From assembly GCA_023474215.1 (NCBI GenBank), contig JAMCYI010000006.1, positions 1,452 to 65,451 of the forward strand: a stretch of DNA of 64,000 bases. The letters run 5' to 3'. Numbering within the stretch: the stretch's first letter is position 1; each line of letters starts with the position of its first letter. This DNA comes from Patescibacteria group bacterium. Lineage in GTDB: Bacteria > Patescibacteriota > Minisyncoccia > UBA6257 > GWB1-50-10. The position numbers were made by a program, and so were the translations under genes. Below the pieces are notes generated by a model that saw only the letters and a list, made by a program, of their open reading frames with translations, had not been told where the DNA came from and did not search any database. Positions 44,134 through 64,000 of the stretch are shown here, in pieces.

Positions 44134-44182
44134 ATTTTGTCTTAGGGTAATTAGGTTAATCAGAAATTAGAATAATTCGCCT

Positions 44183-45985: not shown

Positions 45986-46009
45986 ACTAAATACTATATA
46001 CCAAATACC

Positions 46010-48074: not shown

Positions 48075-48092
48075 AGATTCATTATAAGCGAA

Positions 48093-49784
48093 CTATCCAA
48101 CCTCCGCATTATAACAGCTTTCACAATACACAATCTCCGGACGTTCGGGGGCGTACGAGGTTTCAAATCCATTTTGACACGAGCTGGAATGATTGTGATT
48201 TTGCTTATCACACATACAACTCCTGTGCCAAAGCTTCACGGGGTTTTTGAGCTTCAACCGATCCTTGAGCCGGCAGAAAAAGCACCTTCGCGGCACCGGG
48301 ATGCCATTCTTTTTGTAGAACGCCAGCTCTTCGGCGATGACTTTGTAATTTCTCCCGCATTCCATACAAGCGAGAATTTCATCCACGATTGAATCGGGTA
48401 CGTCACTGATCGCGTCGGGGATTTCTCGCATTGTCTCTTTTCCCGTCGTGAATTGGAGCTTGTCTTGCCATCGATACCCTTTCGCGAGCGCTTCGTCTTT
48501 CGTAAGCGGATAGCTGTCCTGCGCGAGAGTTTCGTTGTATCCGAAAGTGGAAAGCGGCACCGGGAAAAACTCGCCCCATTCCCCTCTTTTTTTCATATTC
48601 TCTATGATTTCCGCCTTGAGCTTCTCATACGATCCTTTGTCGTACTGTTTGTTCAAGATGCAGTACTTGGCGCTCTTCAAGCCCACACATCCAAAAAGTT
48701 CTTCCGACGATTGGCAACTGTCTGCATAGAGAACGTTCCGATCCTTATGGCAGTACGACGTGAAATGCGTACCGTACGAATTATCCGGATTGATTCCTTC
48801 GTAGCAAAGCTCCTGCTCGCCCCCGCTTGCGCAGTCGTAACTGTCTTTGATCGTGTCGCCATTCTCGAAGAATTTCGAATCCTCGACGCGGACAGCATTC
48901 CAGCAATTCAGAGCATTTTTCGAATTCACAAGATAATTTCCCGTGCAATTTACGCAATTCATGAAATTCGCCGGTCTTCGCGGGAATTTCAGTATGAAAC
49001 CGAAAAACTCCTTTTTAGCCCGTTCCGATCCGCTCCACGTGTCGAGCCGGTAACCGGCCACTATTTTTCCATACTCCTCTTTCGAGTACTGCTCGTTCTT
49101 CACACAGTACTTTTTGTGGCGGAGGCCGATCGACATAAAGCAGTCGGTGCAATCCTTGCAGTCGTAGCAGAAAGCGCAATCGATGAGCGATTCCGAATTG
49201 AAGATGAATCGGCACGAATTACTCTCTCCCACGTAAATCGACTCGTAGATATTCCGGGCATTCGAGAAAACCGTCATCACGTCCACCATATCCTTCGCGT
49301 TCACCATATGGTAGCAATACATGCAATTCTCCACTTTCCATGAGTTCATCGTGAGGTAACAGTTTTTGCCGAGGGCGAAGTAGTTCGTGTATTCGCACCC
49401 GACGCTCGCGATGTTGTTGTCGTTCAGAATCGCGAGAGCCGGCACGGTATCAAGAAGTTCCCGATACTGTTCGAAGAACGGCCGCGAGGGATCGTAATCC
49501 CGCCCGTACTGTCCAGGATCCCAGCCATCGCTCCACCAGCACTTATTGCAGTAGATCGGAACGAGCTTCTCCGGCGAGTAGATAGAAATGATTTTTCGGC
49601 CGCAGAGCCCGCACTCGCGATTATAGAAATTGTAGTCGTTCCGCCAGGCAAGCCGCCGCTGCCTCCGGCAGTCGGGGCATTGGGTCGCCGCCGGTACGCC
49701 GATGCGGTTATAAAAAGAAAAGTCATCAGGTTCGATGACGAACTCCTGACGGCAGTTTTGGCAGCTTTTTGTTTCCGGACTCAT
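48093..49784 (-). CDS. Cys-rich multi-zinc-ribbon paralog family, member 6 (563 aa)
   Basis: Same architecture. ATGA overlap with member 7. Confidence 0.6.
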   Translation of the reverse strand: MSPETKSCQNCRQEFVIEPDDFSFYNRIGVPAATQCPDCRRQRRLAWRNDYNFYNRECGLCGRKIISIYSPEKLVPIYCNKCWWSDGWDPGQYGRDYDPSRPFFEQYRELLDTVPALAILNDNNIASVGCEYTNYFALGKNCYLTMNSWKVENCMYCYHMVNAKDMVDVMTVFSNARNIYESIYVGESNSCRFIFNSESLIDCAFCYDCKDCTDCFMSIGLRHKKYCVKNEQYSKEEYGKIVAGYRLDTWSGSERAKKEFFGFILKFPRRPANFMNCVNCTGNYLVNSKNALNCWNAVRVEDSKFFENGDTIKDSYDCASGGEQELCYEGINPDNSYGTHFTSYCHKDRNVLYADSCQSSEELFGCVGLKSAKYCILNKQYDKGSYEKLKAEIIENMKKRGEWGEFFPVPLSTFGYNETLAQDSYPLTKDEALAKGYRWQDKLQFTTGKETMREIPDAISDVPDSIVDEILACMECGRNYKVIAEELAFYKKNGIPVPRRCFFCRLKDRLKLKNPVKLWHRSCMCDKQNHNHSSSCQNGFETSYAPERPEIVYCESCYNAEVG

Positions 49785-51550
49785 GCGACTTCACTGTTAT
49801 AACATTGCTCGCAGTAGATGATTTCCTTCCCCTCGGGAGCATATGGCGTCTCGAACTCGTTCGGACACCGGCCGGAATGATCATGGTCAGGTTTCTCACA
49901 CATACATTGCCGATGCCAGAGCTTCATGGGCGTGCGCCCCTTGAGGCGTCCGTAATGCCGGCAATTCGGGCAAAGTGTCGGGAGCGGAATGTTCATCTTT
50001 TTATAGAACGCGAGTTCTTCCGGCGTGATGCGGAATGCTTCCGTGCATTGCTCGTCGCATTTCCCCTCATGTGCGCATCCGATAACCTCTTTCACCATAT
50101 CGTCCGAAACGATGCGAATGGCGTCGGGCAAGTCGGCCGGCTTCAGGGTTATTTCGTAATTTCTCGCCTCCGGATCACGCCACTGGTATCCCATTGCCGT
50201 CGCTTTTTCTTTCGTCGAAGGGAAATACTCCTCGGCCACCGTCTCGTTGTATGAAAAAAGGGCGATTTCCGGCGGGAAAAACTCGCCGAAACCGTACCGC
50301 ACTCCCCTTTTATCGACATACGGCATCTCGTCCATGTGTTTTTTAATTTTCGGGAGAAGTTCTTCATATTCCTCCTTCGAGTATTGCTTGTTCAAAATGC
50401 AATACTCCTTGTTCCGCATGCCGTAACATCCGAACATATGGTGCGACCCGTGCGTGTGGACACTCCACCACACGTCGCTCGAATCATAGACTACGACACC
50501 GCCCACGATCCTCGATGAGCTGTTGATATCGACGCCTTCGTAGAGGAGTTCCGACTTCCAGCCGGCCCCCGGCCCGCAATCGTATATTCCCTTGCTTCCG
50601 AATCCGCTCCAGTTTACATACCGGCAATCTTCCGTGTCGTCGCCCACGAAATCGAAGCAATCCCGGCAGTTCTTCGTATTCTGCAAATGATCGCCCGTCG
50701 AACCGACCGAATTCACGATGTCCGCATATTTATGGATCGCTTTCACATACACCTCGTCCTGGAATTTCCGTCGGACTTCTTCGAGGACCTTCCGGCTTCC
50801 GAGGTTCAGTTCCTTGACCCTCTTTTCGTATTCGTCCTTCGATATCTGCTCGTTGAAAATACAATATTGCTTATTTCTCAAATTCGCACATCCAATGCAG
50901 TCCCGGCAGTTCTTGCAGTTGTAAAGGAACCAGGAATCGCTGCAACCCTCGCAGTTCGAGGAATACAAGAGCCGGTACGAACCGCTGACGTACGAACCAT
51001 CGTAGCAAAGCTCGCTGCCGTCGACGATATAGAGATCGAGCGAATCCTTATCCTTCACCATCCGGTTCGCGTACATCACGTTCTCGTTCCATCCGCCGGC
51101 GGAAACGAGGTGACAGTTCTTGTTCCACGCGGCGGAGCTGCAATATTCGCTATTCACCGAATTCGTGTTCGAAAGCGTGATTAAGGGCACGCGGCTGAGA
51201 AGCTCCGCGTACTGTTCAAAGAACGGCCTCGAGAAATCATAGTCCTTCCCGTACTGCATCGGATCCCACGCGTCACTCCACCAGTATTTCTGATCGTAGA
51301 CGGTGTACGGCGCGTTCGCCGGATGGAGGCTGATAATGTCTTCCGAATGTCCCGGTACACCGCACTTCCGCTTATAGTAGGTACGTTCGTTCCGCCACAC
51401 CATTCGCCGCGCGGCGCGGCATGCCGGGCACCACGTCGGGACCGGCACGCCGATCTGTTGGTAAAAATCAAAATCTGCAGAATCGATAACGAACTCTTCT
51501 TTGCAATTTTGGCAAGTTCTGGTTTCAGTTTTGGTCATTTGATCATTCAT
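49781..51550 (-). CDS. Cys-rich multi-zinc-ribbon paralog family, member 7 (589 aa; true start probably MTKTETR at about 51538)
   Basis: Same architecture. 5' UTR contains AT-rich direct repeats shared with member 2. Confidence 0.6.
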   Translation of the reverse strand: MNDQMTKTETRTCQNCKEEFVIDSADFDFYQQIGVPVPTWCPACRAARRMVWRNERTYYKRKCGVPGHSEDIISLHPANAPYTVYDQKYWWSDAWDPMQYGKDYDFSRPFFEQYAELLSRVPLITLSNTNSVNSEYCSSAAWNKNCHLVSAGGWNENVMYANRMVKDKDSLDLYIVDGSELCYDGSYVSGSYRLLYSSNCEGCSDSWFLYNCKNCRDCIGCANLRNKQYCIFNEQISKDEYEKRVKELNLGSRKVLEEVRRKFQDEVYVKAIHKYADIVNSVGSTGDHLQNTKNCRDCFDFVGDDTEDCRYVNWSGFGSKGIYDCGPGAGWKSELLYEGVDINSSSRIVGGVVVYDSSDVWWSVHTHGSHHMFGCYGMRNKEYCILNKQYSKEEYEELLPKIKKHMDEMPYVDKRGVRYGFGEFFPPEIALFSYNETVAEEYFPSTKEKATAMGYQWRDPEARNYEITLKPADLPDAIRIVSDDMVKEVIGCAHEGKCDEQCTEAFRITPEELAFYKKMNIPLPTLCPNCRHYGRLKGRTPMKLWHRQCMCEKPDHDHSGRCPNEFETPYAPEGKEIIYCEQCYNSEVA

Positions 51551-51662
51551 TGGAAATTGATTGAAAATTAAAAATTGGAAATTGAAAATTCCACCTTGAA
51601 TTCATTATAAAACAAATGCTCCACGGTTAGCCGCAGAGCATTAAAACAGTCAACAAGGGGGG

Positions 51663-52103
51663 TTATATCGTGGGGCTGACGACGATGATCCCGCCGAGGA
51701 TCGGATCTTCTTTTTCCTCGGACTTGAAAGAAACGATCTTCCAGTCCGGTCGCAAGCTCAAGTCGTCATATTCGACATCGCCGAGTTCGGCGTGCACCGA
51801 CGACCAGAACACCTTGCGAAGGATGTCCGCCTTGTCCATGAGGTTGCGGTAATCGCGGAAAACTTTTTCGCACTCTTTTTCCATGCCGTCGCCGCCGAAG
51901 AGGAACCGAGCGTGCTTTTGCTCGTGATCTTTCTTCATCTTACTTGCTTCTTTGGCAAGTTTGGCATGGAGAGAATAGATCCGCTTCAAGTTATCATTGA
52001 CCTCGATTACCACACGACCTTCCGGATAGGGACCTTCCGCTACCGGCTTCACGATCGTAGTACTGTCGATCTCCTTTTGGAGATCTTCGAGAAATGTGGC
52101 CAT
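51663..52103 (-). CDS. hypothetical protein (146 aa) within the array interruption
   Basis: ORF only. No recognised motif. Confidence 0.4.
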   Translation of the reverse strand: MATFLEDLQKEIDSTTIVKPVAEGPYPEGRVVIEVNDNLKRIYSLHAKLAKEASKMKKDHEQKHARFLFGGDGMEKECEKVFRDYRNLMDKADILRKVFWSSVHAELGDVEYDDLSLRPDWKIVSFKSEEKEDPILGGIIVVSPTI

Positions 52104-52169
52104 AAACCACCTCCTGTATTAGTGAGAAATATGTTTAGTTACAGGACTATACTATAAACTATTTTCATA

Positions 52170-53303
52170 TTATTTGTCAATCTCTGTTCGCCTCTTGCCG
52201 AAAAAGCGGACATAGAGATACATATTTGCGGCCATAACGGCGCCATACGCAAAAAACGGGACATCGAGGAGCGCTGCATCCATGAGGTATCCGGCGAGCC
52301 CCGTGCCGGCCGAGGAAGCCGCAAGACGCGCGACTTGGTTCACGCCGAGCGCGCGGCCCATTTCATCGCCATCCACCCGGCGCGTAAGTTCCGCCTGCTG
52401 GATCGGAAGCGCCATGATGCGGAGCGCCGGTCCAAAAACGTACACGAAAACGGCAAAAGGCAGGAAACGAATGATCGGGAAAGCGACGAAGAGAGCCGTT
52501 CCGATCCCCCTGCTCCACACCATGCTTTTTACGAATCCGAGATGTTTTTCGAGGAGCGGCGCTGCGAGAATGGCAACGGACCCTACAACACCCGAAAGAA
52601 AAGCGTATTCCGCCATTTGTGATTTTGGAATGTTATAAACCAAAAGAAAGAATGGGATGAGGAACGGAACGATGAGGCCTTGCGAAAATCCGTTCAAAAT
52701 GCCGGTCAAGGTGAATTTTCCGATGGTCGTTTTCGTCTTCAAAACGCGGAGCTTGCCCTTGGATTCCGTAACTTCGATGAATGGCAATGCAACGACACCC
52801 AATGCCGCGACAACGGTCGCAATGAGAAAAATATCTTGGACCGAGAAAACTTTCGCAAAGAGCGCGCCGATGGCCGCCACGATGCCCGAGAGGAAGGTAA
52901 AGAAGGAAAAGTATTTCGTCCGTTTTTCGCTCGGCGTGAGTTCCGTGATGACGGTGTTTTGGATCGGTTGGACTGCACCGCCAATGCCGCCGCCGGCCAA
53001 GGATCCGGTTGCGGAGTACCCCCCCACCATCGCTGCAAGGAATACCACCCACAAACTCGACGAAAAATATACCAAAGCGGAACTCACCGGCAGGAGCGCG
53101 CTTGCAATGAAAAGCGTCCCCCGCTTCCCCCACACGTCGGTCGTGATGCCGGCAAAGAAACTCAAGACCGCCGTCGCAATCGTCGCTGCGACGTAAATAA
53201 GGCCGATCATCCCGGCGCTTTGATGAAGGTCGACCAACACGTAGTACGGAAATGCGATATTGATCATCCCGGCCGCAATGCTCCGGGTGATCCTTGAAAC
53301 CAT
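52170..53303 (-). CDS. MFS transporter (start at internal MVSRITRS)
   Basis: About 12 TM helices and an MFS-type 'G..TDVWGKRG' loop motif. Confidence 0.7.
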   Translation of the reverse strand: MVSRITRSIAAGMINIAFPYYVLVDLHQSAGMIGLIYVAATIATAVLSFFAGITTDVWGKRGTLFIASALLPVSSALVYFSSSLWVVFLAAMVGGYSATGSLAGGGIGGAVQPIQNTVITELTPSEKRTKYFSFFTFLSGIVAAIGALFAKVFSVQDIFLIATVVAALGVVALPFIEVTESKGKLRVLKTKTTIGKFTLTGILNGFSQGLIVPFLIPFFLLVYNIPKSQMAEYAFLSGVVGSVAILAAPLLEKHLGFVKSMVWSRGIGTALFVAFPIIRFLPFAVFVYVFGPALRIMALPIQQAELTRRVDGDEMGRALGVNQVARLAASSAGTGLAGYLMDAALLDVPFFAYGAVMAANMYLYVRFFGKRRTEIDK

Positions 53304-53373
53304 AATGAGGTAAATGCCTTTTTTCTTGGGCCTTAGTTCAATTTCCACAGTAAGAACGATTATATCACACTGA

Positions 53374-53613
53374 ATGAAACCAGGTGGTATAATAAGAGTG
53401 ATGAAAAGCCGCGAGAATGCCATGTACGACACCACGAAACTCGCCAAATTCTTCGGCGTGACCGAACGAACCGTTCTCGAATGGTGCCGGAAGGGCAAAT
53501 TGCCGGCTTTCAAAATCGGCAGAAAGTGGAAAATCAGGGTCGTCGACCTCCAGAAAATGATCGACCGCAAAATACACACTTCCAAGGGAAATACTCCCCC
53601 ACACTTACTGTAA
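53374..53613 (+). CDS. excisionase/Xis-family helix-turn-helix DNA-binding protein (HTH_17-like)
   Basis: 'TTKLAKFFGVTERTVLEWCRKGKLPAFKIGRKWKI' matches the excisionase-type HTH pattern. It is the only + strand gene within the array. Confidence 0.55.
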   Translation: MKPGGIIRVMKSRENAMYDTTKLAKFFGVTERTVLEWCRKGKLPAFKIGRKWKIRVVDLQKMIDRKIHTSKGNTPPHLL

Positions 53614-53732
53614 TGATTTAATTACCGAAGGTCGGCGGCGGGACTTTAATCCGTTCGTAGAAACTAAAATCCTCCGGCTCGATAGCGAACTCCCGGTGGC
53701 AATTCTGGCATTGCCTCGTTTCAGAGTTCATG

Positions 53733-55442
53733 TCAGTTGAAGATATCCCTCAAGTAGCATTCCGTGCAGTAGACGACGGGGGCTTCATCCTCGCGGTAGT
53801 GCGTCCGGAGCTCTTTCCCGCACTTCGTGCATGTCCGTTCGATGAGAGACATCTGCTTGGCCCATTGCCGCACTTTTTCCTCAATACGACAGAAGGGACA
53901 TCGCCGCGGGAGGGGGAAGTTGTACTGCCGCAGGAACTGCAACTCATAGGGCGTGATTTTGTATCCCCGCGGGCACGCCGTGCACTTGATCACTTCTTTC
54001 AAAATATCATCCTTCGCATCCCGGATATGATCGGGGAGATCGGCGGCATCCATAGTCGATGCGTGTTCGGAGGGCGAGATCTCTACCCATGAAAGCCCTT
54101 CTCGCTGCGCTTCACCCTCTTCCAAGGGATGGAAGAGGTAGGCAAACGTGTCATTATAATCATGCGGCGAAAGCGTCGCCGGGAAGAACTCTCCGTAGCG
54201 GTACGTCCGCCCGGCGGGATCCACATACGGCGTCGAATTCATCTGCCCGATGATCTTTTCCCGCATCGCGTGGTATTCTTCCTTCGTATACGGCTTATTG
54301 AAGATGTAATACTGTTTGTTCCGAAGACCCGAGCATCCAAAAAGATAGGAACATCCCATGCAGCTTTTCGAATATTCCACGTGGTGGCTCGCGTGAATGT
54401 CCTGGCTGAATTTGACGTCGGCGACCTGGTTTCCCACCGTGATGCTGTCGTAGATGCGCTCCGCGCCCTCCCCCCAGTCGGTATAATCATAGCTGTCTTT
54501 CACGGTCGGCGCCTTGATGAGCATCATATACTTCGAATCTTCGCAGTAGCCGGAGTCGTAGCATTCCTTGCAGTTCTTGGAATAGAAAACGTAGCTCCCC
54601 GTGCAGTTGTCGTTGAACATATAGTCGTAGCAGGGATTCGGGATCGAATTTTTCCACACTTCCGCCGAACGCTTTTTCATTTCCTGGTACGTTTTGTAGG
54701 AACCGAGGTCGATCCCGTCCATCTTTTTCTCATACTCTTCCTTGGTCAACTGCTCGTTGAGGAACACGTACTTCTTATTGTGGACGTTCGCGGATCCGAA
54801 GCAATGCTCCGCATTCCGGGCATCCCGCAGGAAATAGGAGTCGAGCGAGCTGTGGACGTTCCCCCGCGAACCGTGGACGCGGTTGTTCCGGAAACCGTTC
54901 ATGCCGTCGTAGCATTCGGTACACTCCCAATAGACGCTGCAGTCGAGGAGCGCTTTGTCTTTCGTCAGATAAAAGCCGTACTCGCAGTCGTCGCTGTTGT
55001 CGGAATAAAAGATGAGATAGGAATTCTTCGAGCTCGCGCAATGGTTGGTGTAGGGAGAAAGTTCCTGCACGTCCTTCGTCACGGCGAGTCCCCGAATCGG
55101 AACTCGGTGGAAATGCTCGTTCAGTTGTTCGAAAAACGGCCGCGAGAAATCATAATCACGTGCATAGTCCTCGGTATTCCATCCATCACCCCACCAGCAG
55201 TCGGGGCAGTAAACCCGATAGGGCGAATTCGGCCGGTACATCGATATTTTCTCTTTCCCGCAAAGATCGCACTTCCGCTTATACAAACGGAAGCCCTTGA
55301 GCCACATGAGCCGCCTTTCGAGCCGGCATGCAGGACAGAAGGTCGGCGGCGGGACCTGGATCTTCTCGTAAAAGATGAAATCATCGGGTTCGATAATGAA
55401 TCCTTGATGACAATTCTGGCAAATTCTTGATTCGGAACTCAT
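53733..55442 (-). CDS. Cys-rich multi-zinc-ribbon paralog family, member 8 (start at MSSESRICQNC)
   Basis: Same architecture. ATGA overlap with member 9. Confidence 0.6.
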   Translation of the reverse strand: MSSESRICQNCHQGFIIEPDDFIFYEKIQVPPPTFCPACRLERRLMWLKGFRLYKRKCDLCGKEKISMYRPNSPYRVYCPDCWWGDGWNTEDYARDYDFSRPFFEQLNEHFHRVPIRGLAVTKDVQELSPYTNHCASSKNSYLIFYSDNSDDCEYGFYLTKDKALLDCSVYWECTECYDGMNGFRNNRVHGSRGNVHSSLDSYFLRDARNAEHCFGSANVHNKKYVFLNEQLTKEEYEKKMDGIDLGSYKTYQEMKKRSAEVWKNSIPNPCYDYMFNDNCTGSYVFYSKNCKECYDSGYCEDSKYMMLIKAPTVKDSYDYTDWGEGAERIYDSITVGNQVADVKFSQDIHASHHVEYSKSCMGCSYLFGCSGLRNKQYYIFNKPYTKEEYHAMREKIIGQMNSTPYVDPAGRTYRYGEFFPATLSPHDYNDTFAYLFHPLEEGEAQREGLSWVEISPSEHASTMDAADLPDHIRDAKDDILKEVIKCTACPRGYKITPYELQFLRQYNFPLPRRCPFCRIEEKVRQWAKQMSLIERTCTKCGKELRTHYREDEAPVVYCTECYLRDIFN

Positions 55443-57136
55443 ATGATTTCTTTCTGATAACATTCTTCACAATAAATGATTTCCTTGCTTTCCGGAGAAA
55501 AACTCGTCTCGAACTCGTTCGGGCACCGGCCGGAATGATCATGATCCGGTTTCTCGCACATGCAATTGCGGTGCCACGTTTTGTTCGGCCCGCGCGCCGC
55601 GAACCGCCGTTCGTGTCGGCAATCCGGGCACTCGCGCGGGAGCGAAATCTCCAGGTGTTTGTAAAACTCGAATTCGCTCGGGATGATGCGGAAATTTTTC
55701 TTGCATTTCACGCAAACGAAGATCTCCTTCGGCACGTCGATACTCCCGACGTCGCGAATCGAATCGGGTATTTTGTCCCATGGTATCGTTTCCTTGCCGT
55801 AGGTCCCCCGCGGATGGTCCTCCCACTTGAACCCCTGCCGCAACGCTTCTTCTTTCGTGAGAGGAAACTGGCCCTCTGCGGCCGTCTCGTTGTATCCGAA
55901 GGCACTGACGGATGCCGGGAAGAATTCTCCGTAGATCCCCTCCTCCCTCATTTTCGCGATGATCTCCTTCCGCAATGTTCTGTACTCTTCGGGCGAATAT
56001 TGCTTATTCAGGATGCAGTAATTCTGCTTTCGGAGGCCCGTGCATCCGAAGCAGTTCGTGCAGTTGAAGCAGTAGGAAGAATAGTCCATGAAACTCGATG
56101 ACCAGCAGACGGCGGTGGCAACATAATGCGAGACGTCGATGCCGGCATTGATCGAATTGTAGACCAGCTCCGCGCTTCTGCCCGCCGTGTCGGCATCGAC
56201 GCAATCTTTCGCGTTCCGCCAGATATGGACGCCGTATTTACTGTCCTCGGAATCGTAGCAGTGGAAGCATGACTTGCAATTCTTCGCGTCTTCGATGTAG
56301 TTCCCCGAAGAGCCGGGCGAGTTGTAGACCTGAGCGAACCGGCGCGGCTCCGTCATCGCGAAATCCTCGAATTTCTTTTTAAATTCCTCGAGACCGGTCC
56401 ACGTATCGAACCGCGCTTCTTCGAGGAACTTTTCGTAATCTTCTTTCGAGACCGGTTTGTTGAAAATGTGGTACTGCTTATTGAACAGATTGACGCAACC
56501 CACGCAATTCGAGCAGCCGCGGCAATCAAGGAGAAAATACCCGTCGTGCGAATCGTGGCATCCCTTGCTCCAAAACAAACGGTACGAGTTATAGCAGTCG
56601 TCGCTCTCGTACGAAAGTTCCGTCTTGCTCGCGAAGGACGTATCGACGCAATCCTTGCACTCTTGGATCCAGTAGCAGTGGGTACATCCCTCGTTGTTCG
56701 ACGACTCCACGAGCATATAACAATTCTTGTTGTCGGCCGATATGTTCACATACTCGGAGTTGACGCTCCGCTCGTGCATCAGACCGACCTTCGGCACTTT
56801 GTTCCAAAGTTCGGCGAACTGATCTAAGAACGGCTTTGCGAGGTCGTACTCAATACCGAGATCGCGACCATCCCAGCCGTCGGAAAACCAGCAATCGTGG
56901 CACCACACCGCGTACGGTTTATTCGGACTGTACATCGAGATGCCATCCTTGCCGCATTTGTCGCACTTCCGGGAATAGAATGAGCGTTCATTTCTGAACG
57001 CCAATCTTCTTTGTGCGCGGCACGCCGGGCACAGCCTAGGCGAAAGAACGTCCATCTTTTCGTAAAAACCAAAATCCTCCGGTTCGATGGCAAATTCCTC
57101 ATGGCAATTCTGACAAATTTTCTTCTCGGGAGACAT
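55439..57136 (-). CDS. Cys-rich multi-zinc-ribbon paralog family, member 9 (565 aa)
   Basis: Same architecture. Confidence 0.6.
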   Translation of the reverse strand: MSPEKKICQNCHEEFAIEPEDFGFYEKMDVLSPRLCPACRAQRRLAFRNERSFYSRKCDKCGKDGISMYSPNKPYAVWCHDCWFSDGWDGRDLGIEYDLAKPFLDQFAELWNKVPKVGLMHERSVNSEYVNISADNKNCYMLVESSNNEGCTHCYWIQECKDCVDTSFASKTELSYESDDCYNSYRLFWSKGCHDSHDGYFLLDCRGCSNCVGCVNLFNKQYHIFNKPVSKEDYEKFLEEARFDTWTGLEEFKKKFEDFAMTEPRRFAQVYNSPGSSGNYIEDAKNCKSCFHCYDSEDSKYGVHIWRNAKDCVDADTAGRSAELVYNSINAGIDVSHYVATAVCWSSSFMDYSSYCFNCTNCFGCTGLRKQNYCILNKQYSPEEYRTLRKEIIAKMREEGIYGEFFPASVSAFGYNETAAEGQFPLTKEEALRQGFKWEDHPRGTYGKETIPWDKIPDSIRDVGSIDVPKEIFVCVKCKKNFRIIPSEFEFYKHLEISLPRECPDCRHERRFAARGPNKTWHRNCMCEKPDHDHSGRCPNEFETSFSPESKEIIYCEECYQKEII

Positions 57137-57139
57137 GTA

Positions 57140-57262
57140 GAAATTTTACATCAAATATAGGGCTCTCGGCAGTCCTCCGGATTCCCGAGGACCAAAAAAA
57201 GCGAGCGGGGCGCCCATGGTGCCCCGCCCGCGATACCCCCGAGCTGCCTTCGGTGTTCGGGG
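57140..57262 (-). terminator. cluster of three GC hairpins between array members 10 and 9
   Basis: Inverted repeats gcggggc/gccccgc and cccccga/tcggggg seen directly. Confidence 0.4.
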
Positions 57263-57265
57263 GGG

Positions 57266-58972
57266 TTAGGCCGTCAGTTCACTGTAGCATTTCTTGCAAA
57301 GGATGTTTTGGGCATCGTGATTACTGATCGATGTCATAAATTCGGCCCCACACTTCGAACACGCTCTCTTTTCCATCTTCAAGTTATCGACCCACTGGTC
57401 GATCTTCTCATCGATCCTGCAGAAAGGACATTCACGGGGCAAGGGGTAGTTCATCTTCCGCAGGAACTCCAATTCGTCTCGTATCAACCGGAACCCCCTG
57501 CCACACTTGGCACAGCCGATAATTTCATTCAAAAGATCATCCGGCGCGTCTTTAATGTGATCCGGCAGATCGGCTGCTTTTTTCGTTACCTCGTATTCCT
57601 TTTTTTCGATATTTCGCCATCCGTATCCTTCGGCGCGAGCGGCATCTTCGGTCAGTGGAAAAAAATTCTGGGCCAGAGTTTCATTGTAGGAAAACGTGCT
57701 CATTTCGACGGGGAAGAACTCCCCGTATGTATACACCCTCCCCTTCTGGTCCGTATAGGGCATCTCGTCCATATGGCTCTTGATTTTCGGGATCAGAACT
57801 TCATATTCCTCTTTGGTGTATTGTTTGTTCAGAATACAATATTCTTTCTTCTTCAGGGAAACACATCCGAAAACGTGCGCTCCACCGTAAATCAGGAACG
57901 AATATTCGGAATCCATCAAATTCAAACCCGAGCCGTAGTTGAACTTCACCTCGCTCGCGTTTTCGCCCACGTTCGGCGAATCGTAGGAAAGCGTGAGATT
58001 GTTCCCCCAGCTCGTGATGTCGTAGGAATCTCTCGTCCCTGGAAGATACAGCATCGAAAGATATTTTGAATTCTCGGCGCCTAAAACTTCGTAGCATTCC
58101 TTGCAGTTCCGCGATTGGAAAACGTTGTTCCCCGTGCAATTCTCCGTGAATTCGTCGAAAACCGGTTTCGGCGGGAATTTTTTCCAGTGCTCTTCGGCGA
58201 GTTTTTGGATTTCCCGATACTCACGGTATGACCCCAAATCCCACTTTTTAATTTCTTTGAAATAATCTTCTTTCGCATACGGCTTATTGAAGATGTAATA
58301 CTTCTTGTTCCTCAAATTGATCGAGGCGAAGCAGTTCTGGCATCCCCAGCAATATTTGAGGAAATACGAATCAATCGACTCCGTCACCTGCCCCCGGAGA
58401 CCGGCACACCGGTTGCATCGGTAGGCGTGCATCGAGTCGTAGCAAAGCTCGGAATTCATGATGAGTGATGAGTCAAAGACCGATTTACTGTTCGTTGCAT
58501 AAAAACCGTAGGCGGAGTCTTCGTCGAAATCGGCATGGAAGAGCATATACACGTTTTTGTTATTACCGCTCAGGTGCGTGTAGGGTGACGTTTTGAGGGT
58601 CATGAAATCAGTCGAGAGCGCCGGAAGCGGCGCCTCGCTCAGAAACTCACGGAATTGTTCGAAAAACGGACGGGAGAAATCGTAATCGCGGCCGTATGCG
58701 AGCGGATCCCACCGGTCGCTGAACCAGCACGGAACACAGAAGACCCGATACGGAGCATCGGGGGCATAAACCGAAATGGTTTCTTTCCCGCAAAGGTCGC
58801 ACTTCCGCTTATAGAGATTCACGACGTTCATAAACGACAAGCGCCGCCTGAAGCGGCACTCGGGACAAAACGTCGGCGGAGGGACTTTTATCCTTTCATA
58901 AAAAGCGAGATCCTCAGGCTCAATGATAAATTCGCGGCGGCAGTTCTGGCAAACTTCTTTCCGGGAACTCAT
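57266..58972 (-). CDS. Cys-rich multi-zinc-ribbon paralog family, member 10 (568 aa), first gene of the array
   Basis: Same architecture. Confidence 0.6.
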   Translation of the reverse strand: MSSRKEVCQNCRREFIIEPEDLAFYERIKVPPPTFCPECRFRRRLSFMNVVNLYKRKCDLCGKETISVYAPDAPYRVFCVPCWFSDRWDPLAYGRDYDFSRPFFEQFREFLSEAPLPALSTDFMTLKTSPYTHLSGNNKNVYMLFHADFDEDSAYGFYATNSKSVFDSSLIMNSELCYDSMHAYRCNRCAGLRGQVTESIDSYFLKYCWGCQNCFASINLRNKKYYIFNKPYAKEDYFKEIKKWDLGSYREYREIQKLAEEHWKKFPPKPVFDEFTENCTGNNVFQSRNCKECYEVLGAENSKYLSMLYLPGTRDSYDITSWGNNLTLSYDSPNVGENASEVKFNYGSGLNLMDSEYSFLIYGGAHVFGCVSLKKKEYCILNKQYTKEEYEVLIPKIKSHMDEMPYTDQKGRVYTYGEFFPVEMSTFSYNETLAQNFFPLTEDAARAEGYGWRNIEKKEYEVTKKAADLPDHIKDAPDDLLNEIIGCAKCGRGFRLIRDELEFLRKMNYPLPRECPFCRIDEKIDQWVDNLKMEKRACSKCGAEFMTSISNHDAQNILCKKCYSELTA

Positions 58973-58974: not shown

Positions 58975-59163
58975 CTACTCCGCGTCATCGCCTTCCTCTT
59001 CCACATTAATATGATTCTCGGTAAGGAACCCGGCTTCCTTCAGTTTTTTCTGCTGCATTTTGAAAATCCTCTTGCATCGAGCGGTTAAAATCAAACCCCT
59101 CACGATCTTGTACGCGAGAAAAAGAATGACTAATCCTATTACGATGTACCAAAAAACATTCAT
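58975..59163 (-). CDS. small single-TM protein (62 aa) immediately upstream of array member 10
   Basis: One hydrophobic helix and an acidic tail. 2-nt gap to the next gene. Confidence 0.4.
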   Translation of the reverse strand: MNVFWYIVIGLVILFLAYKIVRGLILTARCKRIFKMQQKKLKEAGFLTENHINVEEEGDDAE

Positions 59164-59212: not shown

Positions 59213-59518
59213 CTATCCCACAACCGTCGTCATCCATTCCTTGTATGCCCTATTGACGCGTCGAACATCCACGACCGCAACAAGCGGCGTTGAATAGGAA
59301 TGGTTTTGGTGAATGAGATCTTCGACATCCTGCACTTTCGATTCATTGGTCTTAATGAGAAGCGCATACTCGTTCTCACACTTCATTTTCCCCTCCCAGG
59401 TATAGCACGATTCAATCGGCCATGTGTTGACGCACGCGGCGATCTTCCGCTCGACGATGAGCTTTGCAAGCTTTCTGGCTTCCTCAACGCCTTCACAGGT
59501 TGAATAAATAAAAACCAT
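59213..59518 (-). CDS. cutA: divalent-cation tolerance protein CutA
   Basis: 101-aa CutA1-like sequence ('..KLAACVN...SIYTWEG...E..LL.KT'). Confidence 0.7.
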   Translation of the reverse strand: MVFIYSTCEGVEEARKLAKLIVERKIAACVNTWPIESCYTWEGKMKCENEYALLIKTNESKVQDVEDLIHQNHSYSTPLVAVVDVRRVNRAYKEWMTTVVG

Positions 59519-59589
59519 ACTTCAATTTATTTACTTTTTACTCGACCTTTGGAGAAAAAATGAAGAAATCCAAATTCCAAATGTCAAAT

Positions 59590-59743
59590 CAATGCTCAAA
59601 ATCCTAATTTCAAAATCCTAAATCCTAAATAAACCCCCCAATACTCTAAATTCAAAATTCTAAACGCATGTTTTGGTCATTAAAATTTGTATTTCGATAT
59701 TGTTCAGGATTTGGTGCTTAGGATTTAGAATTTTAAACCAGGG
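59590..59743. repeat. second copy of the ~150-bp inverted-repeat AT-rich element (see 14225..14356)
   Basis: Aligns with the first copy at roughly 80% identity. Same orientation on the + strand although the flanking genes are on the opposite strand. Confidence 0.55.
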
Positions 59744-61190
59744 GCTCCGGTGTTTGATCGTTCGCGTCGGCGGGCTTCCCCGTGATAGCTGCCTTTTCTT
59801 GAGCGCTCCGCCAAATGCCGGCTTCTTCCTCGGCGATAAGTTTTTTCGCGGCATCCGCCGAAATGGAATATTTTTCGCGCGAACGTTTGATAATCTCGTC
59901 CTTGAACGAGGGATGGGTCGGCGGCAAAACGCGCAACGTTTCCGCCGAGAATGGATCGTAGGTTTCGCCGTCAATCGTCATTTTGATGTAAATTTGGCCC
60001 ATGCCGAGATTGATCATATCCTTCACGTCAAAAACCGGCGCCATTTCCGGCTTCAGCTTTACCGCATCTTCACCGCCGACACGGAAAATAATGATAGTTC
60101 CGGTATTCCCCAAAACGGCGGCTTGCACCTTCGGCAGCAGCTGTCCGACGTACTGGTGGGCAACGGTAAGGCAAAGGCCGTACTTCCTGGCTTCCGACAA
60201 AAGGTTTTCGAACGTATCGGTCACGAGATTCTGAAACTCATCGACATACAGATAAAAGTCGTTCCGCTCGGCTTGCGGCAAGGTTGCCCGCGCCATACCC
60301 GCTTGCTTAATCTTCGTAATGAACATCGATCCGAAGAAGCTTGAATTTTCTTCGCCGATCTTCCCCTTCGAGAGATTGATAAGGATGATCTTTTTGTCGT
60401 TCATTAATTTCTCGAGGTCGATTTTGTTCTCCTTTTGGCCGAAGATGTTCCGGAGCATCGGATTCGAAAGGAATTGGCCGAGTTTGTTCACCAAAGGAAT
60501 GATGGCTTCCGTATCGAATTTCTCCGACCAGTCGGCGAACTCGATAGCCCAAAAGCGTTTCACCATGTCGTCTTCGATGTACTCCACAACCTTTTGGCGG
60601 TAGTTTCGGTCGGAAAGCATCGAAATCATGCCGCGCATCGTAGCATGTGGATAATCGAGGAGTGCAAGGCATGTGAACCGGAATACGTGCTCCAAGCGGG
60701 GCGTCCAGTTCGCGCCGAATTGTTTTTCCATAACCTCGATCAAACCTTGCGTCAGCTGATGTTTGAACGAAGGATCGATGTTTGCAAGCGGGTTGAATGA
60801 TGCCGGATATTCGATATCAGAGGGGTCGATGATGCACACATCGTCGATACGGTTTTCGGGAATGGACGGGAGGATGTCGTCGATGGTATCGCCGTGCGGA
60901 TCGATCAAGCAAAGACCGTACCCGTATTCAATATCCTGCCTGACCAAAAGTTCCATCAGCTTCGATTTGCCGACGCCGCTTTTGCCGATGATATAGGTAT
61001 GCCGGCGGCGATCGACCCGCTTCAGGCCGAAAATGAATTTTTTTTCCTCGAGCGAAGCGACATAGTTCGTCCGGCCGATGTACGATATCTCGGACGGTGA
61101 GATGTTGCCGTAAACCGGGAGTTGCGGCGGCGGCGGCGCATACTTGATGATCTGTAACCTGGTTTGTCTTTGTTGCGGTTGTTGTGCCAT
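59733..61190 (-). CDS. VirD4/TraD/TrwB-like coupling-protein-family P-loop ATPase (second paralog)
   Basis: Walker A 'IIGKSGVGKS', Walker B 'LYVDEFQNL', 'VAHQYVGQL'. Confidence 0.6.
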   Translation of the reverse strand: MAQQPQQRQTRLQIIKYAPPPPQLPVYGNISPSEISYIGRTNYVASLEEKKFIFGLKRVDRRRHTYIIGKSGVGKSKLMELLVRQDIEYGYGLCLIDPHGDTIDDILPSIPENRIDDVCIIDPSDIEYPASFNPLANIDPSFKHQLTQGLIEVMEKQFGANWTPRLEHVFRFTCLALLDYPHATMRGMISMLSDRNYRQKVVEYIEDDMVKRFWAIEFADWSEKFDTEAIIPLVNKLGQFLSNPMLRNIFGQKENKIDLEKLMNDKKIILINLSKGKIGEENSSFFGSMFITKIKQAGMARATLPQAERNDFYLYVDEFQNLVTDTFENLLSEARKYGLCLTVAHQYVGQLLPKVQAAVLGNTGTIIIFRVGGEDAVKLKPEMAPVFDVKDMINLGMGQIYIKMTIDGETYDPFSAETLRVLPPTHPSFKDEIIKRSREKYSISADAAKKLIAEEEAGIWRSAQEKAAITGKPADANDQTPEPLV

Positions 61191-61193
61191 GTT

Positions 61194-61733
61194 CTACTTT
61201 AAGGCCCGTAGGGTCCTTAGAAACGATTCATACACGCGAAGCATTTCCTCCGCCTCCTCCTTTTTTAACTCAAAGCCAGGCGTATGAACTAATTCGTTCC
61301 GGAGCTTGTGCGCCCGCCAGAGATCTTCGATCTGATTGAAGTCGTCGTAGGTGAAGTGTTGCAACCGATCGGCCATATGTTCTCCCGGGAGTCCCATTTG
61401 TTTCAATGCGGAATCGACGAGATTGTCGGCCGATATGACGGCGAGCATGAGCGATTGCGCTTTTCCTTCCCGCGCCTTTTCTTCGATGCCCGACCAATGC
61501 GCCGCAAAGTTCGCCGTATTGAAGGAAAAAGGTTTTGCTTCCATCCCTGACCCTTCCTTCTTGCCTTCAACCCCTTCTTCTTCGAACTCCCCTTCAATGG
61601 GCGGGCGGATCTCCCACCCCTTTGCAAAATAAATTATCGTCGCCACGAAAAGGATCACATCCAAAACGATGAACGCGATGCGGAAACCGCCATAGAGTCC
61701 TTCCCAATTGATCGCTTCAAAAAAATGGATCAT
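61194..61733 (-). CDS. membrane-anchored protein with a HEPN-like Rx4H motif (RNELVH) in the C-terminal helical domain
   Basis: N-terminal TM helix. Acidic linker. C-terminal helical domain with 'HKLRNELVHTPG'. Confidence 0.35.
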   Translation of the reverse strand: MIHFFEAINWEGLYGGFRIAFIVLDVILFVATIIYFAKGWEIRPPIEGEFEEEGVEGKKEGSGMEAKPFSFNTANFAAHWSGIEEKAREGKAQSLMLAVISADNLVDSALKQMGLPGEHMADRLQHFTYDDFNQIEDLWRAHKLRNELVHTPGFELKKEEAEEMLRVYESFLRTLRALK

Positions 61734-61737
61734 TTGA

Positions 61738-63165
61738 TTACTTATACCGCTCTATTTCTTCGTCGGCGCCGAAGATGGCGAGCCCTGCCGACGGGCCTGT
61801 CTTTCTGCTTTCGAGATGTCTCAAATGCGGTTCCGTGAGAACGATGGACGTTGGGATATGAAAGAGCGTCGCGATGCACTTTGTGTTCATAAGGAAATTT
61901 CTCGATGCGTTCCAGTTGAAGAAATATGAGGTCATGACGCGACCCACCAGGCTTTCGGGAGGAATTTCCCGCTCTTTATAATCAAAGAGGATGCGGGCTT
62001 TACGGTATTCGCCGCGCGTCTTGGGGAAAACGTACGGGCTGCTCCAAAGCTTCGTACGCGTCGAGACATTGTAGTTTTGCGTAAAACCGTTCATATCGAG
62101 CGCCGCATATTGACTGAAGGCGCCGATCAAACCTCGCCGCGGATAGCTGTCCGTAAAGGTGGCGCGCGGTGAAATGTACACGAAACGCGTCAACGTCTCG
62201 AAGGCCGGCTTCGAGAGATTTTCCTCGACGGCTTTCAAAATTTCCGTTTGTCGAGGGCTCCGCATCGTAAACATGCTGAATTCCCCTTCGCCGGGGTTTA
62301 TTTCCGTTTTCGTTCTTTTCGACTGCTGCCGCAATTCCTCCAATTCCACCTTCGAACCATCAAGCCACTTGTCGTAATCGGTCATCGGGTCCTTTCCGGT
62401 CGGCGCAATCAAAAGCTGGATCCCCACAAACTCGTCCTTCATAAGCTTTCCCATAACCTCGAGGAAAGATGAAATGGGATCGAATCTTTTTTCTTCGTCG
62501 GGGCTCGCTTCGAAATCGGCATACGTTTTAATTGGATACAATTCTTCCTTTTGGAGAAGCATTTCCGTCCCCCACAAATCGAATCCTTCTTCGTACATCG
62601 ACGTAACGCTCTTCGGAAGCCTGTCGATATAGTCGGGTACTTCGATAATATCGATATCCGGATAATACGAAAAGAACGACGCTTCAACCAGATTTTTCAA
62701 GCCAGCGTAAATGCGGATATAAAAATGGATTTCTCCTCCGAAACTCGCCATTTCGAGCGAAAACCACCGCGTCACTTCTCCTTCGATATATTTTTCTTTG
62801 AAATCGGACGGTGCGTTTCTGAGCGCATGGATCGCCGTCAAGACCTGCTCCATCGCTTGAGGGCTTTTTTGAATGTTCCGGGGAACCCGAAGCTCCAAAA
62901 GGACCCACTTCAAAGATTTTTTATACATCTCCCGCTTGTAATGGAGCCACAATTCCTTGAATAAATTGAAGAGAATGATGAAAACCCACAGCCACCACGT
63001 ATATTCGAGGAAATACAAAAAAGCCCTCCAAATGGACGCGGGGCCGGTGAAGGGCACCAAAAAAGATCCGATGAGTCCGGCAACAAAAATAGCAAGCCAG
63101 ATCTCCCACGTCGAGAAGAGATCCTTCAGGATATCGCCAAAACCACCAACAATATCTTTCAGCAT
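61738..63165 (-). CDS. large hypothetical membrane protein (3 N-terminal TM helices plus a ~380-aa soluble domain), operonic with the VirD4-like ATPase
   Basis: Hydrophobic N-terminus. Gaps of 3-5 nt to neighbouring genes. Confidence 0.4.
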   Translation of the reverse strand: MLKDIVGGFGDILKDLFSTWEIWLAIFVAGLIGSFLVPFTGPASIWRAFLYFLEYTWWLWVFIILFNLFKELWLHYKREMYKKSLKWVLLELRVPRNIQKSPQAMEQVLTAIHALRNAPSDFKEKYIEGEVTRWFSLEMASFGGEIHFYIRIYAGLKNLVEASFFSYYPDIDIIEVPDYIDRLPKSVTSMYEEGFDLWGTEMLLQKEELYPIKTYADFEASPDEEKRFDPISSFLEVMGKLMKDEFVGIQLLIAPTGKDPMTDYDKWLDGSKVELEELRQQSKRTKTEINPGEGEFSMFTMRSPRQTEILKAVEENLSKPAFETLTRFVYISPRATFTDSYPRRGLIGAFSQYAALDMNGFTQNYNVSTRTKLWSSPYVFPKTRGEYRKARILFDYKEREIPPESLVGRVMTSYFFNWNASRNFLMNTKCIATLFHIPTSIVLTEPHLRHLESRKTGPSAGLAIFGADEEIERYK

Positions 63166-63203
63166 TCCCTTACGGGAATTATACTACGTTCCGAGCCGGC
63201 TTT

Positions 63204-63962
63204 CTACGCCTCTCGAACGGAGAACCTGCCGTCATCGAGCTTCTTAAAATGATTCTTATTTTGCAGATTCAAGATGACGGTGTTTTCCTTCACCAACCGC
63301 TGAGCCTTCACAAGTTCAATGATCTTGTCCACCTTTTGAGGCCCATTCTTCTTCAAAAGATCCACCAGAACGTCTTTCACCGTTCCCGGCTCGAAGCCGT
63401 GCTCACGAAGCGCGTACATTCCCCTTCCAACCAAAACAAATCGATGATCTTTAATGAGTTCGTTGTGCACCGTTTGAACATGCGGAACTTTTTTGTCCAA
63501 TCCGTATTTATACGAGTACTTGGCAATGTCCGTGAAGTGGAGCGGCGCTCCGTGCTTCCTTAATACCAAGTAGACTCTGTCGCGGATCGTTTTCGGTTCT
63601 ATTTCCGGCCAGCTTTTAAGGCCGAAATCTCCGAAAATGTTCGTCCCGAAGTGCTTCGGGATCGAGAGGAAATGGCACGATGCAAGATCCTTGCACTGGC
63701 CGAGGTATGACTTACTCGTCAAGATCGCCGTTTTTTCTTTCGTGGTCAAAAACTTCGTCATACCGTTCACGAACTCGAGGAATTTCTTCCGCGCATCGTT
63801 CGTTGCATACCAGTAAGCGTTCATTTTGTCATCTTCCTTGGCATACATCGGTTCGTTGGAGACCAACAAAACGAAGCGCACTTTTTCTTTCGCGTTCTTC
63901 GTCTTTGCGTCGATCTTCAGACCGTAAAGGACGTCGTTTAAAAAATCTTCGTCCAGCTTCAC
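63204..63962 (-). CDS. hypothetical protein, GTG start as called. May extend beyond the window edge.
   Basis: 252-aa ORF. The C-terminal basic region could be nucleic-acid binding. Confidence 0.3.
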   Translation of the reverse strand: MKLDEDFLNDVLYGLKIDAKTKNAKEKVRFVLLVSNEPMYAKEDDKMNAYWYATNDARKKFLEFVNGMTKFLTTKEKTAILTSKSYLGQCKDLASCHFLSIPKHFGTNIFGDFGLKSWPEIEPKTIRDRVYLVLRKHGAPLHFTDIAKYSYKYGLDKKVPHVQTVHNELIKDHRFVLVGRGMYALREHGFEPGTVKDVLVDLLKKNGPQKVDKIIELVKAQRLVKENTVILNLQNKNHFKKLDDGRFSVREA

Positions 63963-64000
63963 GCCACCCGCCGACAGGAGGTGTTTTTTCGCAAAATCGA

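Follow-up and report, generated by a model that had tools for sequence, protein, structure and literature searches.

The stretch of DNA considered here, hereafter the window, is 64,000 nucleotides (nt) of contig JAMCYI010000006.1 (assembly GCA_023474215.1) from a Patescibacteria group bacterium, and it is chromosomal DNA of a bacterium from the candidate phyla radiation. Toward one end of it, on the minus strand, lies an operon of three genes, which encode a membrane protein of the DUF8128 family, a small membrane protein with a predicted HEPN domain, and a P-loop ATPase (ATPase-A) resembling type IV coupling proteins (T4CPs). A paralog of the ATPase (ATPase-B) is encoded elsewhere in the window. 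The four genes are as follows.

63165..61738, minus strand: DUF8128 protein, 475 amino acids (aa), from the list of open reading frames (ORFs)
61733..61194, minus strand: HEPN protein, 179 aa, from the ORF list
61190..59733, minus strand: ATPase-A, 485 aa, from the ORF list
30953..32689, minus strand: ATPase-B, 578 aa, the ATPase-A paralog

The gap between the DUF8128 and HEPN genes is 4 nt (TAA tcaa ATG) and that between the HEPN and ATPase-A genes is 3 nt (TAG aac ATG), which bears out the tight linkage of these ORFs described in a first-pass annotation made from the sequence alone.

The ATPase is the easiest of the three proteins to place. By its profile and pairwise matches, ATPase-A is a soluble, T4CP-like P-loop ATPase of the VirD4/TraD type, as the first-pass annotation had proposed. 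It scores above the Pfam gathering thresholds of four families (DUF87, 32.8 versus 23.2; TrwB_AAD_bind, 30.9 versus 20.5; TraG-D_C, 26.4 versus 22; T4SS-DNA_transf, 24.0 versus 20.1) and aligns by BLASTP with TrwB, the VirD4 protein of R388 (E 3e-6, residues 63-351 against 124-391), while its alignment with the VirB4 protein TrwK is confined to the P-loop. It falls far under all NCBIfam equivalog cut-offs (SXT_TraD, 50.1 versus 366 bits; CD1115, 41.5 versus 250), and a PDB sequence search with the single ATPase-A sequence returned only noise. Its Walker A motif is GKSGVGKS and its Walker B motif YLYVDEF, and both motifs are intact in 125 of the 129 ATPase homologs that we collected. The paralogy of the second ATPase, also proposed at first pass, is plain from 46% identity over 435 aa (E 7e-138); ATPase-B has in addition a long low-complexity C-terminal tail. 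By hydropathy, neither ATPase-A nor ATPase-B has a transmembrane (TM) segment (maximum KD-19 score, 1.3).

The 475-aa protein is assigned to Pfam DUF8128 (PF26449) by public annotation, and it is 100% identical to a hypothetical protein on a 465-kb contig of a Patescibacteria group bacterium. The Pfam copy searched here does not include PF26449, and our direct Pfam, NCBIfam, and PADLOC scans of the protein were empty. The family is large, with at least 2,603 clusters at 50% identity (E <= 1e-3), and a literature search found no paper mentioning DUF8128. The three N-terminal TM helices assigned to this protein at first pass reduce to two strongly hydrophobic segments, at residues 22-40 and 48-66; there is also an amphipathic helix at residues 2-16. 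Most DUF8128 members have one TM helix. Because a K/R-rich stretch follows the second TM helix, the positive-inside rule predicts that the globular domain is cytoplasmic. In an AF2 (AlphaFold 2) model (pLDDT 80.6), this is an alpha/beta domain of ~390 aa. The best Foldseek match of the model in the PDB is TrwK/VirB4 (E 8e-5, prob 1.0, TM-score ~0.3, RMSD ~9.6 Å), and next in the list come BBE-like oxidases (1.6e-3), which are unrelated. A PDB sequence search with the DUF8128 profile gave only noise, and neither CagE_TrbE_VirB nor any other recurrent Pfam family was found in 106 DUF8128 members scanned singly. An identification of DUF8128 with the N-terminal domain of VirB4 was considered and dropped (hhalign to R388 TrwK, 1%), and the fold resemblance alone was kept.

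The link between these two proteins comes from homologs in which they are fused. The 150 best DUF8128 representatives (all of 152-588 aa) include no DUF8128-ATPase fusion; the fusions surfaced through the Foldseek viral fold library, in which the DUF8128 model matched gp156 of phage G (825 aa, 5e-16), an "MsbA-like" protein of phage JL (913 aa, 1e-15), a protein of phage Slash (6e-14), and gp155 of phage G (9e-6). When ATPase-B was compared with phage genomes by tblastn, it matched the C-terminal half of gp156 (2e-39, query residues 36-393 against gp156 residues ~381-751), as well as CP-51, JL, and Shanette at ~1e-17 to 1e-19 (JL, 2e-17) and gp27.4 of SPO1 at 3e-14. By annotation, gp156, the JL protein, and gp27.4 are single genes. 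By tblastn, ATPase-B also matched a Sulfitobacter plasmid type IV secretion system (T4SS) DNA-binding protein at 2e-90, and the window ATPase matched fused proteins of Bacillus and Embleya plasmids at ~1e-36 to 2e-65, as against 1e-14 to 2e-39 for the phage proteins. The DUF8128 profile (106 members) in turn aligned by hhalign with residues 17-321 of gp156 (98.6%, E 1.4e-15), residues 79-358 of gp27.4 (90%, E 1.5e-6), and residues 40-308 of a 904-aa "DUF87" protein from a Bacillus plasmid (WP_229762801.1; 98.8%, E 8e-17); its score with the T4CP of an Embleya plasmid (WP_331738717.1, 812 aa) was only 58%. In the fused proteins the DUF8128 part comes first and the Walker A motif after it, at residues 353-428.

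The surroundings of the fused genes, which occur on Bacillus and actinobacterial plasmids and in large Bacillus phages, are those of conjugation. On a 28-kb Bacillus plasmid, a replication-relaxation gene comes after the fused gene, and then several "conjugal transfer" genes and one for a VirB4-like ATPase. The Embleya fused gene is flanked on one side by PrgI/VirB3-like and VirB4-like genes and on the opposite side by a replication-relaxation gene and NlpC/P60. In SPO1, the product of gp27.3 (91819..92643), directly after gp27.4 (92636..95356), matches Replic_Relax (PF13814) at 3e-12, and in phage G, gp155, which has a TraG/AAA_10-type P-loop, is encoded directly upstream of gp156. SPO1-like and other large Bacillus phages carry a conjugation-type module within lytic genomes; 40 of the 45 phage matches come from Bacillus phages, and the records give the fused proteins no function.

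Since DUF8128 and the ATPase are each homologous to one half of these fused proteins, we consider with good confidence that the two genes in the window make up a split T4CP. From the alignments and the fold model, we read the 475-aa protein as the N-terminal half of the coupling protein, split off together with its membrane anchor. The first-pass description of it as a large membrane protein missed what the fold, tblastn, and hhalign comparisons point to, namely, that it is half of something larger. The DUF8128-ATPase family is, as modeled, a T4CP lineage of monoderm conjugation modules whose N-terminal domain looks VirB4-like by fold likeness alone. The C-terminal tail of the DUF8128 protein, residues 455-475 (61738..61800; …GPSAGLAIFGADEEIERYK), is modeled with low confidence and contains the invariant residues P458, G461, I464, and G466; it resembles a P..GI.FG stretch ahead of the ATPase domain in gp156 of phage G. 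Judging by its sequence, this tail may be a docking peptide left at the point of the split.

The window's arrangement differs from each of its relatives. The fused proteins of the Bacillus and Embleya plasmids and of phages G, SPO1, CP-51, and JL are homologous to it in both halves, but they are one polypeptide, whereas the window has separate genes with the HEPN gene between them; a replication-relaxation gene comes after them, with conjugation genes too on the plasmids, and they have neither a HEPN partner nor a zinc-finger array such as lies downstream of the window's operon (see below). Canonical T4CPs (VirD4, TrwB, and TraD) have in common with the window's pair the P-loop nucleotide-binding domain, the all-alpha domain, and the Walker A and B motifs. 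They differ in carrying an N-terminal TM domain on the ATPase chain itself, whereas in the window it is DUF8128, a protein of its own, that bears the TM helices, and the anchor gains a domain of ~390 aa. The window's locus also differs from theirs in being chromosomal, vertically inherited, and duplicated, with no relaxase or T4SS genes near its ATPases. The VirB4 ATPases (R388 TrwK and phage G gp155) are likewise built in two parts, with an alpha/beta domain at the N terminus and a P-loop domain after it, but the ATPase domain of the window is nearer to VirD4 than to VirB4, and DUF8128 has no sequence-level similarity to VirB4, with TM-scores of ~0.3.

The gene that lies between the two halves encodes the 179-aa protein. 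Its family has no Pfam model, and the named homologs that we detected are all from Patescibacteria. Direct Pfam, NCBIfam, and PADLOC searches with the protein were empty, and a PDB sequence search with its profile gave only noise. Its AlphaFold model (pLDDT 78) consists of a TM helix (residues 19-37), a disordered acidic linker (43-67), and a domain (73-174) of four helices, at 73-89, 92-112, 135-150, and 158-174; residues 113-134 make up a loop and one short helix. The motif R145-N146-E-L-V-H150 stands where helix 3 ends and D103 in helix 2, and in the first 24 homologs A102, D103, L110, G117, R123, W139, A141, H142, R145, N146, H150, and L165 are invariant. This geometry (R145-H150 with the polar N146 after the Arg, D103, and the 113-134 insert) agrees with the description in a survey of HEPN domains, in which helix 3 terminates in Rx4-6H, helix 2 carries an acidic residue, and an insert separates these two helices (PMC3710099). 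The compact Foldseek matches of the model in the PDB are HEPN structures, including 2hsb (prob 1.0, TMt 0.67, RMSD 2.9 Å), and further HEPN structures in the list are 1wol, 2q00, the HepT toxin 7ae6, Csm6, and the sacsin HEPN domain. When 63 diverse C-terminal domains of the family were scanned singly, 22 matched Pfam HEPN_Swt1 (best, 6e-5), and there were also matches to Hypoth_Ymh (8), HEPN_Cthe2314 (3), RiboL-PSP (2), DUF4145 (1), and HepT-like_2 (1). Of 83 orthologs, 77 retain the motif W.AH..RNxxxH. The Rx4H motif noticed at first pass, and called HEPN-like there, thus finds backing in the profiles of relatives, in fold and topology, and in conservation.

Taken together, the sequence and model evidence indicates that the 179-aa protein is a membrane-tethered, Swt1/Abi2-like four-helix HEPN domain. 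In many homologs the residues that follow the TM helix are K/R-rich, which would put the HEPN domain in the cytoplasm. Given the conserved D103, R145, N146, and H150, it is predicted to be catalytically active as a metal-independent RNase, or failing that to bind RNA as a subunit. Membrane-associated Abi2/Swt1 HEPN proteins with a single TM helix, a cytoplasmic HEPN domain, and an intact Rx4-6H motif have been described (Anantharaman et al. 2013, PMC3710099), and their predicted target is RNA at the membrane's inner face (PMC3710099). HEPN_Swt1 is the closest Pfam family of the window's protein, which differs from those described in having no additional N-terminal extracytoplasmic or alpha-helical sensor domain and in being encoded by a gene translationally coupled between the halves of a split T4CP. 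In other Patescibacteria, short HEPN relatives are encoded between gatA and gatB (L165:7001-7345 and L167:1245-1667); one is 114 aa without a TM helix (P0022) and the other 140 aa with one (P0023), and their motifs are AHKLRNRLVH or AHKLRNRIAH. The occurrence of relatives in operons for GatCAB, the Glu-tRNA(Gln) amidotransferase, suggests a housekeeping, RNA-associated role and points away from a toxin role.

The history of the operon can be traced in two sets of related loci. The first, the close clade, comprises 83 loci from Jorgensen-, Lipton-, Brenner-, and Wolfebacteria, Paceibacterota, and related metagenome-assembled genomes, with DUF8128 proteins 46-98% identical; gene order was counted in the 74 of them with room downstream. 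The HEPN gene directly follows DUF8128 in all 74, and the ATPase is next in 71, so the operon linkage postulated at first pass holds well beyond the window. The second set, the distant clade, comprises 80 further loci from a metagenome scan, in which DUF8128 is ~30% identical to that of the window; 44 of them have room downstream. Here an ATPase lies within 1.5 kb downstream of DUF8128 in 35 of the 44 loci, in 33 of them within 300 nt and with no HEPN gene detected between, and in none does a HEPN gene follow DUF8128. The DUF8128-adjacent ATPase is of the 578-aa type, that of ATPase-B, in 44 of 45 distant-clade cases, whereas the 485-aa type accompanies a HEPN gene only in the close clade. There are 13 loci with both types downstream of DUF8128, and in ~6 the two are directly adjacent.

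The distant-clade combination of DUF8128 with a 578-type ATPase and without HEPN implies, so far as sequence comparison can tell, that the ancestral core is DUF8128 plus ATPase-B and that HEPN and ATPase-A are additions of the window's clade. By the same comparison, ATPase-A appears to have arisen as a duplicated ATPase, with ATPase-B displaced by ~27 kb in the window's genome. A treble-clef zinc finger (PF23477, zf_Tbcl_2, 1e-10) ends 19 of 43 distant-clade ATPase-B proteins (for example, L085:7567-9552). Its motif, CxxCG..F.PD..RPVYC..C, belongs to a family shared with the C-terminal finger of the array proteins described below and seen also at L170:20983-21365; the window's own ATPase-B has lost this finger.

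Beyond the four genes, the following features of the window bear on the operon.

63204..64000, minus strand: protein with sigma-70 region 4 and HARE-HTH domains, ~338 aa; C-terminal part, truncated by the end of the window
59519..59732: AT-rich spacer of 214 nt, after ATPase-A
59518..59213, minus strand: cutA (CutA1 match, E 2e-30)
58975..59163, minus strand: ORF of 62 aa, with a single TM helix, after cutA and ahead of the array
38698..58972, minus strand: array of ~570-aa zinc-finger paralogs, 10 members (~565-600 aa)
27587..29002, minus strand: ComEC (Pfam Competence and DUF4131), ~2 kb downstream of ATPase-B

Across the loci, the stable upstream neighbors are secD-secF and the sigma-70 region 4/HARE-HTH gene; downstream they are cutA, pepA, or ribosomal genes. 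The locus is chromosomal and vertically inherited, with housekeeping synteny. The first-pass annotation had placed cutA and a paralog array next downstream, as is the case; cutA follows the ATPase in ~35 of the 83 close-clade loci, which is frequent without being universal, and we treat it as synteny and not as a component of the system. At the relative position of the window's 62-aa ORF, a 61-aa gene is called in another locus (L001, 9918-10103). The large ORFs of the window that were scanned against Pfam are housekeeping genes (including PPDK, P-type ATPase, M17 peptidase, MFS transporter, glycosidase, HhH-GPD glycosylase, and ComEC), and no relaxase or T4SS gene is among them. VirB4 and Replic_Relax homologs were likewise not found in the window or in ~165 related loci by single-sequence phmmer, a search of limited sensitivity.

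The spacer after ATPase-A contains several direct and inverted copies of TAGGATTT/AAATCCTA, with arms of 14-35 nt lying 59-89 nt apart. From their sequence, these repeats may form a long hairpin, and the spacer may be the end of the operon, a terminator, or a regulatory element or RNA. A promoter and terminator scan of positions 59000-64000 gave counts no higher than in shuffled sequence; a TAGAAA-17-TATAAT site is present at 63206..63178 and, with the scan at the level of the shuffle, is not taken as evidence of a promoter.

Each end of the Cys-rich array proteins carries treble-clef zinc fingers. Pfam zf_Tbcl is matched by 10 and zf_Tbcl_2 by 9 of 18 members of the family, and the core of ~450 aa between the terminal fingers has no Pfam or PDB sequence match; a literature search found no paper mentioning zf_Tbcl. 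In the window, an MFS transporter gene and two small ORFs break up the array, which is not private to this lineage, with homologs at L024, L028, L044, L168, and L170. In 35 of the 54 loci with room, array homologs lie within 3 kb after ATPase-A on the same strand, sometimes only 3-14 nt from its stop codon. Of the 80 distant-clade loci only 1 has them, the one in which a 485-type ATPase is present as well. The array may be an accessory, adaptor, or client set of the same system.

The gene upstream of DUF8128 encodes an unusual chimera of two RNA polymerase-associated modules, with sigma-70 region 4 at the N terminus and HARE-HTH at the C terminus. A full-length ortholog (L004:4946-5962, 338 aa) matches Pfam Sigma70_r4 at 1e-16 and HARE-HTH at 5e-7, and the profile of the neighbor matches structures of primary sigma factor region 4 at ~5e-19. 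The gene is found upstream of DUF8128 in most loci of both clades. We considered whether it might be a diverged replication-relaxation protein and rejected this (hhalign, 0.1-0.7%). It is a conserved neighbor and only a candidate member of the system.

ComEC follows soon after ATPase-B in four further loci (L049, L059, L071, and L077), within ~600 nt in the two from Liptonbacteria (L049 and L059). We take it as a candidate conduit partner, which is a weak lead and not evidence. In the window, ATPase-B, mnmA, ComEC, and efp lie within 5 kb (27587..32689), with only efp on the opposite (plus) strand. Among loci that lack an ATPase beside DUF8128, ComEC follows DUF8128 after a gap of 12-22 nt in two (L104:2997-4493 and L129:5429-6958), and a GT4 glycosyltransferase and a DUF4012 protein follow it in two others (L117 and L119). 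In L022 and L076, the HEPN gene is followed by a gene for a 510-532-aa protein with a weak match to the GlxA beta-barrel.

What might such an assembly do? Our preferred reading, which we think is probably correct though with clearly less assurance than the split itself, is that the operon encodes an exapted, membrane-docked translocation motor, probably for nucleic acid. DUF8128 would anchor a hexameric ATPase ring at the cytoplasmic face of the membrane, and ATP hydrolysis would drive a polymer, most likely nucleic acid, into a membrane conduit, which could be a T4SS encoded elsewhere or ComEC. Import would be slightly favored as the direction of transport. The TM helix would tether the HEPN domain beside the motor, where it would cleave or hold RNA at the site of translocation, and the zinc-finger proteins of the array would serve as adaptors or clients. 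Nucleic acid as the substrate is suggested by the T4CP ancestry, the zinc-finger tails of ATPase-B, the HEPN partner, and the HTH neighbor, and further hints are the occasional ComEC adjacency and the HEPN relatives in gatCAB operons; we put this part forward tentatively, as a suggestion on which we would not yet rely. The possibility, raised at first pass, of a membrane DNA-translocation or uptake apparatus was of the right general class; the search of the window for relaxase or T4SS components found none.

Several observations weigh against this interpretation. The interaction between DUF8128 and the ATPase, the substrate, and the direction are all things that we infer from sequence. No ATPase lies beside DUF8128 in ~9 of the 44 distant-clade and 3 of the 74 close-clade loci. 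Most of the fused plasmid and phage proteins have no N-terminal TM helices, and membrane anchoring would therefore be a Patescibacterial feature and not an ancestral one. The likeness of DUF8128 to the VirB4 N-terminal fold has no backing in sequence, given the 1% from hhalign with TrwK. For HEPN, the window's own sequence reaches only Hypoth_Ymh in Pfam (E 0.11), and the Foldseek matches of its model in the PDB have no significant E value (all >= 0.1). The motif His or Arg is replaced in 6 of the 83 orthologs (L057, L062, L069, L074, L081, and L082), so catalysis cannot be universally required. ComEC adjacency, at 6 of 160 loci (~three independent events), is ~2x the chance expectation. The only experimental datum is also negative, in that the t4cp homolog of Southlakia epibionticum is not essential for epibiotic growth (PMC12102498).

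A more ambitious version of the motor hypothesis would make the whole cluster one machine that imports and processes host nucleic acid in Paceibacteria-type ultra-small bacteria. In the order sigma-70 region 4/HARE-HTH, DUF8128, TM-HEPN, ATPase-A, zinc-finger array, ATPase-B, and perhaps ComEC, ComEC or a channel of T4SS origin would be the route by which the T4CP-derived motors pull in RNA or DNA, the tethered HEPN RNase would cut it at the site of entry, and the zinc-finger proteins would act as substrate adaptors. We regard this as a long shot.

Of the other explanations, the one that survives best, and is still unlikely, is that the pair is the genuine coupling protein of a chromosomal T4SS encoded elsewhere, which would export proteins to the host, with the array as its effectors or their adaptors and HEPN as an accessory or co-secreted toxin regulator. 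The fused homologs do sit in full conjugative T4SS clusters, and T4SS genes are described as widespread in Patescibacteria and essential in one member (PMC12102498). Against this, only 148 of the 5,713 VirD4-type T4CP homologs in 2,918 Patescibacteria genomes are near virB4 (PMC12102498), and neither the window nor the ~165 related loci yielded a gene for VirB4, VirB6, or any other T4SS component. The array is similarly two-sided: its genes follow ATPase-A on the same strand, at times almost immediately, and its zinc-finger family recurs on ATPase-B tails, but the proteins are Cys-rich zinc proteins without secretion signals, which would make them poor substrates for unfolding-dependent export, and the distant clade has DUF8128 and the ATPase with the array absent.

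The first-pass annotation had also offered a conflict system as an alternative, and in its fuller form this would be an abortive-infection system in which the ATPase senses invading DNA, the tethered HEPN domain is a suicide effector, and the array supplies variable sensors. HEPN domains are typical effectors of defense (PMC3710099), and a large array of paralogs does suggest diversification. Against this, the locus is vertically inherited and nearly universal in its clade, keeps the same neighbors across genera (secDF upstream, cutA and pepA downstream), and has no flanking mobile-element or defense genes; the deep sister clade has the DUF8128-ATPase core without HEPN, and close relatives of HEPN reside in gatCAB operons, a housekeeping RNA context. 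The ATPases give weak PADLOC matches to mad8 (1.7e-13) and HerA, but these are partial and at the level of the P-loop, and the HEPN and DUF8128 proteins match no PADLOC model. We therefore disfavor this alternative and consider it quite improbable.

An FtsK-like segregation or division translocase, with DUF8128 as anchor, the ATPase as DNA pump, and the upstream HTH protein for sequence recognition, is the least credible of all: VirD4 and FtsK are reportedly members of one FtsK-HerA superfamily (Iyer et al. 2004), the locus is a core, syntenic, single-locus housekeeping feature, and a DNA-binding HTH protein is its conserved neighbor, but the Pfam FtsK_SpoIIIE match of ATPase-A is only at P-loop level (E 0.0014, 22 residues, under the cut-off), its closest relatives are conjugation-type T4CPs beside relaxase-like genes, and the upstream protein resembles an RNA polymerase-associated factor (sigma region 4).

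Parts of this picture have been published. The ATPase family and its odd genomic isolation in Patescibacteria are reported in PMC12102498, and the TM-HEPN class is covered in PMC3710099. The "orphan" Patescibacteria T4CPs of the former study are the same gene family, with about two copies per genome, far from virB4 and with no relaxase (PMC12102498), and the possibility that T4CP homologs have been exapted is raised there by Quinonero-Coronel et al. 2025 (PMC12102498). The main text, so far as searched, treats the T4CPs as isolated ATPase genes and reports no DUF8128 half, HEPN subunit, or zinc-finger array (PMC12102498). What appears to be undescribed is the split architecture, with DUF8128 as the N-terminal half and a link to fused plasmid and phage forms that have relaxase-like neighbors, and likewise the clade-specific insertion of HEPN and a second ATPase and the syntenic zinc-finger array.

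These results give DUF8128 its first functional assignment, and the roughly two "orphan" coupling-protein genes of thousands of Patescibacteria genomes can now be read as halves of a split protein. The composition of many such orphans is thereby visible, and their cargo is not yet. The fused ancestor type resides in monoderm conjugative plasmids and large Bacillus phages, and a T4CP lineage with a VirB4-like two-domain layout is relevant to the divergence of the two T4SS ATPases.

A large share of bacterial diversity belongs to the Patescibacteria, which are unable to synthesize nucleotides. How they obtain host macromolecules is an open question. In one large clade, the split coupling protein gained a tethered HEPN domain, a second motor, and a zinc-finger array, and what had been a pair of orphan genes can now be put forward as a concrete multi-subunit complex.

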